In this document: piece by piece, positions 7,458 through 10,372 of the stretch | Numbering within the stretch: position 1 is the first letter of the stretch | Layout of the letters: each line of letters begins with the position of its first letter | Translations under genes and position numbers: made by a program | DNA from: an uncultured Candidatus Saccharibacteria bacterium | Lineage (GTDB): Bacteria > Patescibacteriota > Minisyncoccia > Portnoybacterales > UBA2143 | DNA: 11,812 nucleotides | Direction: 5' to 3' | Assembly (NCBI GenBank): GCA_964650035.1 | Contig: CAZYSH010000021.1 | Coordinates: 1-11,812 of the forward strand | The notes under the pieces: generated by a model | Databases searched by the model: none | What the model was told of the DNA's origin: nothing | Seen by the model: only the letters and a program-made list of their open reading frames with translations

Positions 7458-7486
7458 ATTATATAATATGTAAGAGTAATTGTCAA
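7458..7486 (-). promoter_or_regulatory. Consensus sigma70 promoter for the SPFH/membrane-protein operon (minus strand: TTGACA-17nt-TATAAT)
   Basis: The reverse complement reads ctaTTGACAattactcttacatattaTATAATatg. The -35 is at 7481-7486 and the -10 at 7458-7463, about 95 nt upstream of the SPFH ATG. Confidence 0.6.
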
Positions 7487-7489
7487 TAG

Positions 7490-7519
7490 TTGACGAGAGC
7501 GTAGAAAAAGGGATAGAAT
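7490..7519 (+). promoter_or_regulatory. Putative promoter for tRNA-Leu (TTGACG-18nt-TAGAAT), back-to-back with the SPFH promoter
   Basis: TTGACG at 7490-7495 and TAGAAT at 7514-7519. The mature tRNA 5' end is at 7530, 10 nt downstream. Confidence 0.45.
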
Positions 7520-7529
7520 AAAAGTAAAT

Positions 7530-7613
7530 GCGGACGTGGCGGAACTGGAATACGCGCTGGGTTTAGGACCCAGTGGGATTTATCCCTTGTGGGTTCAACT
7601 CCCACCGTCCGCA
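7530..7613 (+). tRNA. tRNA-Leu (anticodon UAG), type II with a long variable arm. The 3' CCA is not encoded
   Basis: 7-bp acceptor stem GCGGACG/CGTCCGC; U8; 3-bp D-stem GCG/CGC with a long D-loop; anticodon stem CUGGG/CCCAG; 7-nt loop UUUAGGA with UAG at positions 34-36. Variable-arm hairpin GGGAU-uuu-AUCCC; T-arm GUGGG-UUCAACU-CCCAC; discriminator A. Confidence 0.9.
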
Positions 7614-7634
7614 CAATAGAATGTCCGGTAACTC

Positions 7635-7693
7635 GAGGTTGAACCTAAAAACTACGAACCTCGCAGAGGTTCGTAGTTTTTAGGTTCAACCTC
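7635..7693. repeat. Palindrome P2: perfect 28-bp inverted repeat with a 3-nt loop (gaggttgaacctaaaaactacgaacctc-gca-gaggttcgtagtttttaggttcaacctc), 22 nt downstream of tRNA-Leu. The core is a bidirectional terminator (AAAAA - 11-bp stem - TTTTT)
   Basis: The reverse complement of 7635-7662 equals 7666-7693 exactly. The outer segment (c)gaggttgaacct shares 12/13 nt with the gyrA-proximal hairpin ccgaggttcaacctcgg at 2066-2082. Confidence 0.85.
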
Positions 7694-7772
7694 TATGCAC
7701 TCAATTCTATTCTGTATCCTGTGGAAAAAGGTCTTGACAAGGTTTTCTTAATTGGTTAGGATTAACGCTAAT

Positions 7773-7880
7773 ATGGAATTTTTTCAAATCAAAACCTTAA
7801 ATAGCTTTTATGGTTTTTACTTTTTTAACTGGTTTGTTCAGATCGGTTTTGGTTTGGAGAAAATAAGGATTAGAGTATAA
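7773..7880 (+). CDS. Hypothetical 35-aa aromatic-rich micro-protein (MEFFQIKTLNSFYGFYFFNWFVQIGFGLEKIRIRV) sitting between a TTGACA-containing promoter region and an intrinsic terminator
   Basis: An ORF with no SD. TTGACA at 7734-7739 with TAGGAT 17 nt downstream; TAATAT abuts the ATG. A terminator follows at 7906-7934. This unit is not in the provided ORF track (below its length cutoff). Coding status is unproven. Confidence 0.25.
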   Translation: MEFFQIKTLNSFYGFYFFNWFVQIGFGLEKIRIRV

Positions 7881-7905
7881 ACATAAAGTATATTTTCAGC
7901 AAATT

Positions 7906-7934
7906 AAAACCGGCCTGAATAAGACCGGTTTTTT
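7906..7934 (+). terminator. Rho-independent terminator (aaaaccggcc-tgaataa-gaccggtttttt)
   Basis: GC-rich stem ACCGG/CCGGT extended to about 9 bp with one mismatch, followed by a 6-T run. It closes the short transcription unit that starts near 7734. Confidence 0.5.
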
Positions 7935-8458: not shown

Positions 8459-10154
8459 ATTCCTCTTTTTCAGTTTCGATTGGATACAAATCAGGGGATT
8501 TGTAGTTGGAATAAAAAGTTTGTTTTTCCAGCTCTTCGCCACTTAGTTTATAAACTTCCTGGGTTAAGACGGCTTTCATAGAGCCGTCTTCATTGCTTTC
8601 TAAAATATAAGGGCCTTTGATTTTTACTTGACGGTTGTCATCTGTGCCGTAGAAATTGACAATAACCTGGCTACCCTGGACAGAGGCCTGAATTAAAAGG
8701 TGATTGGGCGTATTATTAACAAAGCGCAGGTCGGGTTTAGGATCGTAAACTGTGGCGTCAAAGCCCTGGGGATTGTAATAAACAACCGGGAAGGCGTGAT
8801 GCTGACGTTCAGTAATTTTTAAACCGGTATTGATTGCTGCCCGGAAGAAAGTAGTTGAAACCTGACAAACGCCGCCGCCGTATTCCGGGGTGGTTTTATC
8901 TTTTTTAATGACTAATTCTGCTTTGTATCCTTGCTCCGGGCCGGTTTCGCCCAGGAAGGCGTTAAAAGAGAATTCTTCATTTGGGTTTAGGATGTAGCCG
9001 TTTAATTTATTAACCGTTGTTTTGATATTGTGTTTTCGGTTAGCTGGCGAACCGGCAAAGCTGGAAATCCCCTGCCCAATTAGTTTTTTAATGCCTAACT
9101 GGTTAGTTTCCCATAATTTAATTTTAGGCAGGGCTTTATCGGCAATAATGGCGGTGGTTTTAATCGGCGGGTCAGCTAAAATATTTTTTACTAAATTATC
9201 AAAAGTTTGTTCTTTTTTAACTTCAAAACCGGGCTGGTCGGGCGCAAAAATAATCGCTTTATTTCTTTCAGTTTTTAGTTGAGCATTAGTTACTGGCTGG
9301 TCAACTTTACTGGCTACTCTATCTAAATATTTTTTGACTTTTTCAATGTCTAAATTAAAACCTAAAATCAGATTATCATAATCTTCTTCTTTAATTGGCT
9401 CAAAAATTATCCAATCAATTAAAATTGTTTTGTCAATTTCATATTTTTCTCCCTCAAAGGTTAAATAATAGGGCTGATTGGCTAAAACTTTCTGCGCTTT
9501 TTGTTTAGCTGAATCAACTTCATTGTTTTCCACTTCTGGCCGGCCGAGAAATAACTCTAAATTGATTGGTTCTGAAGTAAAAGTATTAATCTGTTGCTTT
9601 AGATTATTTATTAATTGTTCTCGGTTAACAGCAACGCCTTGGGTTGAGTGTTGTAGCGAATAATCATTTATTTCTGAATTAAAAATTAAAGTAGCGTTTT
9701 GAGTCGGCCGTTCAATATTTTCAAAAAGTTGGCCGGTCTGCTCTTGGAATTTTTCTTGATTTATTTGGTAAGCAGCGCTAAAAGAGCGAAAGCCGAATAA
9801 AGCGATTAATTGTTCTTTAATGTTGACTAATGGATTTGAGTGATGGCCGATTTGCTCGGCCTGATTAATAGTTGTTTGGTAGTCAGGCTGGAAGCCGAGC
9901 TCGGTAATGTCAACTAACCAAATTTTATCTTGATAAACGAGCTTTACTTTTTGTTGAATAAATTGCTCCCATTTTTCAGCTAATAGTTTTTCCGCGGAAG
10001 AAATATTTTTTCCGCCCAAATGCAAATCATCTACTTTAACGCCCCAGGCAATTTTTTGGCTATTAACTATTTGCAGGGTTAGAATGAGATAAATTGAGCA
10101 GATAAAAATAATTAGAACGAAGATTTTTAGTTGTTTTTTAAGAAATTTTTTCAT
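8457..10154 (-). CDS. VanW-domain protein (vancomycin-resistance protein W family) with an N-terminal membrane anchor
   Basis: N-terminal TM (IFVLIIFICSIYLILTL). VanW signature region PEYGGGVCQVSTTFFRAAINTGLKITERQHHAFPVVYY (conserved GGGVCQVSTT motif). 565 aa. Confidence 0.88.
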   Translation of the reverse strand: MKKFLKKQLKIFVLIIFICSIYLILTLQIVNSQKIAWGVKVDDLHLGGKNISSAEKLLAEKWEQFIQQKVKLVYQDKIWLVDITELGFQPDYQTTINQAEQIGHHSNPLVNIKEQLIALFGFRSFSAAYQINQEKFQEQTGQLFENIERPTQNATLIFNSEINDYSLQHSTQGVAVNREQLINNLKQQINTFTSEPINLELFLGRPEVENNEVDSAKQKAQKVLANQPYYLTFEGEKYEIDKTILIDWIIFEPIKEEDYDNLILGFNLDIEKVKKYLDRVASKVDQPVTNAQLKTERNKAIIFAPDQPGFEVKKEQTFDNLVKNILADPPIKTTAIIADKALPKIKLWETNQLGIKKLIGQGISSFAGSPANRKHNIKTTVNKLNGYILNPNEEFSFNAFLGETGPEQGYKAELVIKKDKTTPEYGGGVCQVSTTFFRAAINTGLKITERQHHAFPVVYYNPQGFDATVYDPKPDLRFVNNTPNHLLIQASVQGSQVIVNFYGTDDNRQVKIKGPYILESNEDGSMKAVLTQEVYKLSGEELEKQTFYSNYKSPDLYPIETEKEE

Positions 10155-10203
10155 TAATTTAAGGAGAAAAACCTGAGATAGTTGGGGACAGAGTTAGAAG
10201 TTG

Positions 10204-10277
10204 GAGATTCAAGGTGTGGCCTCAAAATTACTACCCTTTGCAAAGGGTAGTAATTTTGAGGCCACACCTTGAATCTC
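10204..10277. repeat. Palindrome P3: 74-bp perfect palindrome (37-bp arms, no spacer) in the vanW upstream region, with a bidirectional-terminator-like core (AAAA - 13-bp stem ttactaccctttg/caaagggtagtaa - TTTT)
   Basis: The reverse complement of 10204-10240 (gagattcaaggtgtggcctcaaaattactaccctttg) equals 10241-10277 exactly. It is flanked by imperfectly complementary agttgg / ccaact-type short repeats, which could extend the pairing. Confidence 0.85.
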
Positions 10278-10329
10278 ACCCAACTCCCAACTCCAACTCC
10301 CTCCACTCCTATAATTATCATAACAAAAA

Positions 10330-10358
10330 ACAGGGGATGAGTGTATCCCCTGTTTTTT
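10330..10358 (-). terminator. Rho-independent terminator of the hsp20 gene, usable on both strands (aaaaaacaggggat-gagtgt-atcccctgtttttt)
   Basis: 9-bp stem acaggggat/atcccctgt with a 6-nt loop. An A6 tract lies upstream and a T6 tract downstream. It sits 15 nt beyond the hsp20 stop on the minus strand. Confidence 0.65.
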
Positions 10359-10372
10359 GTTCCTAGAAAATT

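Follow-up and report, generated by a model that had tools for sequence, protein, structure and literature searches.

The best reading of our data is that a family of small, non-coding palindromic repeats has settled between the genes of a clade of Patescibacteria (Parcubacteria/Portnoybacteria-like). The analysis concerns an 11,812-nt stretch of contig CAZYSH010000021.1, from an uncultured Candidatus Saccharibacteria bacterium (the window; 38% G+C), in which a long palindrome, P2, follows a tRNA-Leu gene and a short hairpin follows gyrA. We favour, with some reserve, the view that these belong to a non-autonomous family resembling REP (repetitive extragenic palindromic) sequences and REPINs, in which an inverted doublet would spread and solitary copies (solos) would probably be collapse products, a mechanism that we infer. 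The copies form a repeat family, their insertions are polymorphic between species and between strains, their substitutions are mirrored in the two arms, and the hairpins fold with strongly negative energies.

P2 (7635–7693) starts 20 nt past the end of tRNA-Leu(TAG) (7530–7614, plus strand; ARAGORN, Rfam tRNA 56 bits) and is a perfect palindrome of 59 nt (28+3+28), whose arms are 100% complementary around the loop gca. Its layout, GAGGTT g AACCT / A5 / CTAC g AACCTC / gca / GAGGTT c GTAG / T5 / AGGTT c AACCTC, contains six motif copies in the order + − − + + −. A left short-palindrome copy (GAGGTTgAACCT, 7635–7646) is followed by the core (7647–7681), which consists of A5 (7647–7651), a stem (CTACGAACCTC, 7652–7662, paired with GAGGTTCGTAG, 7666–7676) closed by gca, and T5 (7677–7681), and then by a right short-palindrome copy (AGGTTcAACCTC, 7682–7693), the same as the gyrA hairpin core and as the solo found in another strain (see below). 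The RNA fold of P2 has an energy of −48.3 kcal/mol (z = −11; −20.3 kcal/mol for the core alone), and in the centroid structure ATAGAAT (7616–7622) pairs with ATTCTAT (7704–7710) as imperfect outer arms.

The gyrA hairpin is a solo short palindrome, CCGAGGTTcAACCTCGG (2066–2082, or 2061–2082 with the shared left flank GTAACC), at the junction between gyrA and a methyltransferase (MT) gene; it starts 2 nt past the gyrA stop codon and folds at −11.3 kcal/mol. The original prediction had linked the two hairpins by a core of 12 identical nucleotides out of 13, which we recover (cgaggttGaacct vs. cgaggttCaacct), and the similarity is longer than had been claimed: the 19-nt pattern GTAACYCGAGGTTSAACCT, which takes in the gyrA stop codon, fits both sites without a mismatch (0.01 matches expected). 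The right outer arm of P2, AGGTTCAACCTC, is identical to the gyrA hairpin at 12/12 positions, and GAGGTTSAACCTC has three matches in the window with at most one mismatch, against 0.01 expected. GAGGTT/AACCTC occurs 10 times in the window (5.9 expected), six of the 10 lying within these two elements.

Because each arm of P2 holds one whole short palindrome (12/13 nt), not half of one, together with a third motif copy near the centre, P2 is an inverted doublet of a unit of ~30 nt. This anatomy does not agree with the idea, also put forward in the original prediction, that an A5-stem-T5 terminator core had been inserted into a short palindrome, all the more so as a further copy, P2', is built in the same way without A5/T5. 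P2' was found upstream of the window. Exact-protein look-ups had retrieved a contig of the same organism, Ga0118719_1003984 (24.4 kb), which is 99.99% identical to the window in the overlap and adds 15.9 kb upstream, so that our within-genome counts cover 27.7 kb (window plus extension). P2' (GAGGTTGAACCTCAGAATTACGAACCTC gca GAGGTTCGTAATTCTGAGGTTCAACCTC; L236 3545–3603, 4.3 kb upstream of the window) lies past the stop codon of S1 and ahead of the start codon of FtsH and is also a perfect palindrome of 59 nt. It shares with P2 the loop gca, the right flank TATG, and 25 of the 28 positions of each arm; all three differences per arm are mirrored in the opposite arm, none being unmirrored. P2' has CAGAATTAC/GTAATTCTG in place of A5/T5 (AATTCT, no T-run), and the GTAG inside P2 (7673–7676) is GTAA in P2'. 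Left flanks are TAACTC for P2, TAATCC for P2', and TAACCC for the gyrA solo. By sequence and layout, the three appear to form one sub-family with the motif GAGGTT/AACCTC, represented by two doublets (P2, P2') and one solo (the gyrA hairpin).

Eight long hairpin elements and one solo, all intergenic, were counted in the 27.7 kb: P1, P2, P3, P2', E1, E3, E4, and one AT-rich element make up the eight. P1 (4042–4107), at the junction between the gene for a solute-binding protein (SBP) and the first of three pilin genes (pil1), is a perfect palindrome of 66 nt with the motif CAAGGAC/GTCCTTG and A4/T4 runs; its plan is exactly that of P2, and its RNA folds at −54.6 kcal/mol. P3 (10204–10277), a perfect palindrome of 74 nt with 37-nt arms and no loop, has the same 5' signature, TCAAGG-N5-CCTCAAAAT, follows a looser version of the P2/P1 plan and folds at about −67 kcal/mol; imperfect flanks, (AGTTGG)n/(CCAACT)n, lengthen it to ~10180–10305, and further imperfect outer pairing occurs around both P2 and P3. 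The z-scores of the P1, P2, and P3 folds range from −11 to −15. E1 (L236 1618–1692; left flank TAATCC), 5 nt past the FtsH stop codon, is an imperfect hairpin of P2-type architecture with the motif AGAGGAC, and E3 and E4 (L243 ~15537–15612 and ~15980–16056), imperfect but of the same architecture and alike each other, stand on either side of rplS with cores (AAAATGATGTCCCTTG...CAAGGGCGTCATTTT) similar to that of P1. Within this one genome the motif varies (GAGGTT, CAAGGAC, AGAGGAC, CAAGGTG), but not the architecture or the spacing. The count of the 13-mer, allowing at most one mismatch, gave five copies at three loci, all intergenic, and the only trace in coding sequence was a single 11-nt core match (L236 5344); with P2' as a third locus, the motif is neither confined to two sites nor placed at random, as the dispersed family of the original prediction implies.

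We compared these junctions with those of related genomes. In a species-representative collection, the nearest genomes are Patescibacteria metagenome-assembled genomes (MAGs) labelled Parcubacteria, Portnoybacteria, or 'Saccharibacteria'; none is conspecific, the best gyrA match to the window being 83% identical. A metagenome scan with the SBP protein likewise gave relatives (best 76% identity) and no same-species contig. The gene order of the window is kept in ~20 of these MAGs, and in a gyrA+MT+SBP tree the window clusters with L004, L018, L006, and L007 (the sister genomes). The gyrA-MT gap, 36 nt in the window, is only 1–3 nt in L004, L006, L007, and L018; SBP and pil1, separated in the window by 85 nt that include P1, abut or overlap in the sister genomes, none of which has a P2-like element after tRNA-Leu; and the S1-FtsH junction, occupied by P2', is 5–30 nt long in most relatives, including all sister genomes. 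P3 is missing from the VanW-Hsp20 spacer of relatives, and in the sister genomes that spacer has only an ordinary terminator, the orthologue of 10322–10361. Taken together, the gyrA-MT, MT-SBP, SBP-pil1, S1-FtsH, and VanW-Hsp20 junctions of the nearest sister genomes either measure 0–30 nt or have no element, and on this comparison all copies are insertions. The MT-SBP spacer (2634–2725; 85 nt vs. 0–15 nt in sister genomes) is full of AATTTCTAA 9-mers in the order + + + + − − −, which form an imperfect AT-rich palindrome; AATTTCTAAT-like runs border the short palindromes of L016 and take up junctions in L044, L086, L109, L111, and L121. Members of the family at the SBP-pil1 junction, as solos, nested forms, or long-spacer doublets, were seen in L016, L091, L109, L111, L125, and the window, many other genomes being empty there; judging from this distribution, the position right after the binding-protein gene would be a hot spot or a selected one.

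Doublets and solos alternate at orthologous sites. In L224, from another sample and 99.7–99.9% identical to the window in its flanks, a solo AGGTTCAACCTC replaces P2 after tRNA-Leu; the sequence there reads CACAATAGGTTCAACCTCAAGG..., the solo standing for segment 7620–7718. The junction shows microhomology (TAG), and the flank on the right has diverged. L016 and L020, two related species (flanks ~93% identical), carry at an orthologous site a 56-nt perfect palindrome (CCAAGGACTGTC...GACAGTCCTTGG) and a 17-nt one (CCAAGGAAAATCCTTGG), respectively; the two have identical ends and are set apart by a 39-nt indel that falls entirely within the palindrome, and the outgroups of the pair are without the entire insertion. 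The simple and expanded forms foreseen in the original prediction therefore both exist. As the short palindrome is itself palindromic, any two inverted copies double as direct repeats: deletion between the two AGGTT direct repeats of P2 gives CGAGGTTCAACCTC, which agrees with the gyrA hairpin at 14/14 positions, and the matching deletion in L016 gives CCAAGGACAGTCCTTGG, which in L020 is the solo that follows gyrA. Since such a deletion recreates the gyrA solo, collapse from long to short is at least as plausible as the palindrome growth that had been suggested, of which the two forms stand but not the direction. From these sequences doublet-to-solo collapse would be mechanistically simple, and for both P2/L224 and L016/L020 the change may have run either way. 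We withdrew an argument in which L225 and L226, taken as more divergent strains, would have shown the long P2 allele to be ancestral, as they differ from the window only in patches of the VanW gene.

Relatives of P1 are found well beyond this genome. The arms of long palindromes in other genomes align with the P1 arm (consensus TCAAGGAC-N-GTCCTTAAAAT(N)AC-R-TCCTTG); the closest comparison, with L098, shows 27/31 identical positions, and the L098 element, made of two 27-nt arms and a 45-nt spacer, sits at MT-SBP, not at SBP-pil1. A hidden Markov model (HMM) built only from the units of other genomes matched both P1 arms (E = 1.8e-7), and P1-homologous units occupy non-orthologous junctions in other Patescibacteria. 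In motif counts made clade-wide over 2.07 Mb, AGGAC-N-GTCCT occurs 20 times (12 distinct contexts; 0.95 expected) and GGGAC-N-GTCCC 13 times (0.65 expected); the everted control GTCCT-N-AGGAC has no match, and everted or scrambled controls agree with expectation. Most AGGAC-N-GTCCT copies are intergenic, although non-coding DNA makes up only ~9% of the sequence by a crude ORF (open reading frame) mask. Genomes differ in the variant they prefer (GGGGAC at three loci in L107, AAGGAC in L016/L020/L034), and L109 has an exact AGAGGTTCAACCTCT inside an imperfect cluster of the same motif. No copies were found in the sister genomes L004–L007 and L018. A signature, TC[AG]AGG-N5-CCTH-ARAA, is common to P2, P3, P1, L098, L110, and L117, with nine occurrences in the 2.07 Mb against 0.13 in shuffles. 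The spacers that follow the solos in the window and in L016/L020 may share a tail (ATGA.., GATATTAG), for which their alignment was suggestive but not convincing. We also noted GGGAGCAAAGCTCCCAtTGGGAGCTTTGCTCCC (L016 9881–9913; also L095 11793), a nested palindrome of two inverted copies of GGGAGCaaaGCTCCC, an unrelated motif.

The elements are real DNA, since assemblies made independently from several samples (JGI, ENA, Logan) agree on the palindrome-bearing sequence, and since the contigs that reach P3 from each side both contain one complete arm joined to a unique flank. Contigs of other assemblies end inside P3 (10221/10258, ~18 nt beyond the centre) and inside P2 (7651/7686); that these two palindromes break metagenome contigs of this organism explains a practical assembly problem.

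In the mechanism that we favour, the building block would be a unit of ~30 nt, composed of a short palindrome h-N-h', an A-rich run, and a third copy of h'. Two inverted units would give the long, usually perfect hairpin that spreads, as in REPINs, and the solos would most likely be remnants left after collapse of the doublet by deletion between its direct repeats. Transposition would probably involve a hairpin intermediate of single-stranded DNA, on which a mobilising enzyme encoded elsewhere in the genome would act in trans. At the RNA level, inserted hairpins may be co-transcribed with their neighbours and could serve as mRNA 3'-end protectors or processing sites, and those with an A-run and a T-run around the inner stem, such as P2 after tRNA-Leu, could be bidirectional intrinsic terminators.

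REP, BIME, and REPIN sequences of Proteobacteria, such as those of E. coli and Pseudomonas, are mobilised by RAYT (TnpA_REP), a Y1 transposase of the HUH type. Like them, the present family consists of a short palindromic unit that is repeated between genes, either as solos (gyrA, L224, L020, L016) or as inverted doublets folding into one long hairpin, with spacers of 0–3 nt in P1, P2, P2', and P3 and of 45 nt in L098; long elements and the solo of the 27.7 kb are all intergenic. Variants are genome-specific, changes between copies are mirrored, solos can be read as doublet remnants, and many copies lie just past genes in operons, including the SBP gene. Singlets and inverted hairpin-forming doublets are the known REP pattern (PMC8266576, PMC3116915), and REPINs show compensatory changes between copies (PMC3116915). 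There are also differences: in REPs a tetranucleotide, most often GTAG, is conserved on the 5' side of the palindrome (PMC8266576), whereas the outer flanks here are TAACTC, TAATCC, and TAACCC (GAGGTT type) or ATC/TTC (P1, P3), giving a conserved flank (T)AAYYC / AATC. The unit here has three motif copies (h-N-h'-A-run-h'), so that each arm can fold on itself, the arms are perfect over 28–37 bp, and the host is a Patescibacterium of the ~1-Mb class.

Other known systems fit less well. Correia/NEMIS elements of Neisseria and other bacterial MITEs (miniature inverted-repeat transposable elements) are small non-coding inverted-repeat elements that lie between genes and are co-transcribed with them; they fold into long hairpins that RNase III cleaves and that may act as terminators or promoters. 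MITEs, however, consist of a non-palindromic body between terminal inverted repeats and cause target-site duplications (TA for Correia), whereas our elements are palindromic throughout and show no duplication at P1, P2, P2', or P3. A DDE-type MITE was rejected because no direct repeats border P2 (..AACTC / TATGC..), P2' (..AATCC / TATGT..), or P3. The ends of IS200/IS605 elements are hairpins recognised on single-stranded DNA, which insert 3' of a fixed tetra- or pentanucleotide without target duplication. Our elements share the hairpin, the lack of duplication, and a TAAYYC-like left flank at the three GAGGTT-type copies and E1, but they have no transposase ORF between hairpins, and a target site cannot be called from only four flanks. 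DNA uptake sequences (DUS/USS), often inverted pairs in terminators, are over-represented genome-wide, including in coding regions; these were dismissed, as the modest motif excess in the window (10 vs. 5.9) comes mostly from the elements (6/10) and the new 16 kb has no excess outside them. Integron attC sites, R''(RYYYAAC)...R'(GTTRRRY), have an imperfect stem with extrahelical bases and an integrase nearby; P2 shows the reverse order (GTTGAAC...GTTCAAC) and a perfect stem, and no integrase is among the window genes, which excluded them as well. Against Rfam, permissive thresholds gave only sub-threshold microRNA-precursor matches on P1 and P3, which reflect their long hairpins; blastn of the P2 and P1 regions against phage and plasmid collections gave no match, and CAAGGACNGTCCTTG, found in 64 viral contigs at one site each, was judged background. 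Literature searches returned no description of such repeats in Patescibacteria/CPR (candidate phyla radiation), and REP/REPIN-like elements thus appear not to have been described in this group.

Several points weigh against the REP/REPIN-like reading. The genes of the 27.7 kb include no transposase of any kind (Pfam) and no Y1_Tnp (RAYT/TnpA_REP) match, the copy number is an extrapolation from these 27.7 kb, the canonical GTAG is not at the outer ends, and neither a target-site duplication nor an excision intermediate was seen. Perfect arms of 28–37 bp are unusual for REPINs. A sequence-only HMM of AAGGAC-type units finds neither P2 nor P3, and the signature that they share with P1 was derived after these sequences had been seen, so that their tie to the P1 family would stand on architecture and a post-hoc signature. 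Finally, reuse of the same junctions across lineages (gyrA-MT, SBP-pil1, the 3' end of FtsH) could reflect selection for a hairpin, not mobility. This last point also speaks for a reading that we regard as unlikely but worth keeping in sight, in which the hairpins are functional modules (terminators, mRNA stabilisers, or RNase III sites) under selection. Ectopic recombination or gene conversion would copy them from site to site, and hairpin-templated repair (template switching) would make them perfect where they stand, with no dedicated transposase. It accounts for the intrinsic-terminator anatomy of the P2 core at a place where relatives have ordinary terminators, for junctions filled in several lineages, including that before the gene after the solute-binding protein, for arms that stay perfect while copies differ, as intrastrand templating would have it, for the L016/L020 indel confined to the palindrome, and for the lack of a transposase in the 27.7 kb. 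However, P2' is otherwise the same element without a T-run, so terminator function is not what is conserved; P3 adjoins an existing, conserved terminator; insertions went into junctions of 0–5 nt, with no earlier hairpin to convert; and P1-arm homologues occur at different junctions in different species.

Also improbable, in our judgement, is that the elements are a new class of palindromic mobile DNA, moved by an enzyme other than a GTAG-type RAYT, which would have reached ~1/3 of the junctions and act as portable terminators or processing sites. The arms would be remade from one strand at each move (fold-back copying of a hairpin intermediate) or continuously homogenised, so that copies would diverge only by mirrored substitutions and remain perfect over 28–37 bp. 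We give very little credence to the short palindrome being the operator of a dimeric DNA-binding protein (regulator or nucleoid protein), with the long forms as half-site arrays. GAGGTT-N-AACCTC is indeed a 6-1-6 inverted repeat, and the six motif copies of P2 would be its half-sites (+ − − + + −), but the half-site varies within the genome (GAGGTT, CAAGGAC, AGAGGAC, CAAGGTG) at constant architecture and spacing, sites are past stop codons and not at promoters, one strain is without P2 with no other change at the locus, and no regulator gene is nearby. That the two hairpins are unrelated and alike by chance, or that the palindromes are assembly artefacts, we can hardly credit. By our estimate it would not be unusual for two sites somewhere in 11.8 kb to have an exact 12-mer in common (birthday effect), and assemblers do break at these palindromes; yet the common pattern extends to 19 nt (0.01 expected), a third copy exists in P2', independent assemblies of several samples have the identical sequence, and separate contigs join each P3 arm to unique flanks.

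P1, P2, and P3 have cores made of an A-run, an 11–13-bp stem, and a T-run, which look like bidirectional intrinsic terminators; at the sequence level, a stem-loop is followed by T5 in P2 and T4 in P1 and P3, but by no T-run (AATTCT) in P2'. A terminator scan flags the P2 core (A5, 11-bp stem, 3-nt loop, T5), which has the shape of a bidirectional intrinsic terminator. P2 differs from such terminators in having 12 more perfectly paired bases outside the A/T runs and in being a strain-polymorphic insertion with a counterpart, P2', that has no T-run. Ordinary A-tract/T-tract terminators follow tRNA-Leu in L006, L009, L016, and L033. P2 is the only terminator-like structure between tRNA-Leu and a promoter-like site at 7734–7762 and would plausibly end the tRNA-Leu transcript. 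Termination cannot define the element, since P2' has no T-run, and the A5/T5 of P2 may be an adapted variant. The view that the repeats mark the 3' ends of transcription units agrees with copies just past stop codons in operons and past tRNA genes, but not with P3, which is downstream of the real Hsp20 terminator and in the VanW upstream region, nor with relatives in which copies lie upstream of gyrA and of tRNA-Leu. The terminator after Hsp20 (10322–10361) is a canonical bidirectional one (A6, 11-bp stem, T6), and its position is kept across relatives, unlike that of the adjoining P3.

Within an operon transcript, one would expect a long perfect stem, P1 behind the SBP gene for example, either to shield the mRNA that precedes it or to be a target of RNase III. 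The parallel would be the REP that Newbury and colleagues reportedly described in 1987 between malE and malF, the classic position after a solute-binding-protein gene. Sequestration of Shine-Dalgarno sequences was rejected, as the AGG motifs are 17–33 nt from the downstream start codons, and so were CsrA-type GGA sites, since the GGA lies within stems and P2 has none. Two other signals surround tRNA-Leu. Upstream, GTCAAtagTTGAC (7482–7494) comprises two back-to-back −35 hexamers of divergent promoters, TTGACA-17-TATAAT towards the Band7 operon and TTGACG-18-TAGAAT towards tRNA-Leu, and is kept in relatives. Downstream, TTGACA-17-TAGGAT (the promoter-like site 7734–7762) precedes an imperfect hairpin of ~100 nt followed by T6 (7829–7934), which is kept downstream of tRNA-Leu in L007 and L011 with three compensatory pairs. 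Rfam gave no family for it, only a sub-threshold mir-77 match; it is a candidate small RNA gene.

The window encodes the 3' part of gyrA, MT, SBP, three type IV secretion system (T4SS)-type pilin genes, two minus-strand genes (one with a Band7 domain), tRNA-Leu(TAG), two small ORFs, VanW, Hsp20, and PrsW. The full gyrA of the same genome (L236 5915–9964; 1349 aa) has an intein (Pfam Intein_splicing), and the window begins downstream of it. The VanW gene (8511–9747) differs in patches between the window and contigs L225 and L226, mostly at third codon positions, and less strongly so in L223 and L228; everywhere else L225 and L226 are identical to the window. The pattern suggests a mosaic produced by recombination in a cell-wall-related gene. 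Another repeat of ~65 nt, AAAGTTCGGATAAGGTCTCGTAGAGCCCACCACCCCGGGTAAATTTATC, is present at L243 11008, 12201, ~13865, and 14668 and at L236 ~300–400 and ~1480–1520, and recurs between successive genes (313-aa, 370-aa, DUF3800, methyltransferase). Its GCCCACCA-CCCCGGGTAAATTTATC part is a copy of the tRNA-Val 3' end with its downstream flank, which suggests that it may be a tRNA-derived repeat or a cassette boundary. In one sample (L245 7989–8870), an IS481-type transposase gene (rve) splits the DUF3800 gene of the same genomic region, which is a strain-level insertion-sequence polymorphism.

Patescibacteria are regarded as extremely streamlined, their genes being closely packed, yet about one third of the gene junctions in 28 kb have gained a palindromic insertion that is absent from sister species, and one of these insertions, P2, is polymorphic between otherwise near-identical strains. 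The family thus lends itself to the study of selfish or semi-domesticated DNA in a minimal genome, and is a candidate source of strain markers. Its series of double, solo, and empty sites is a natural one for the study of palindrome birth and collapse, and a copying mechanism that keeps the arms perfect would, if true, be new mechanistic information for REP-like elements.
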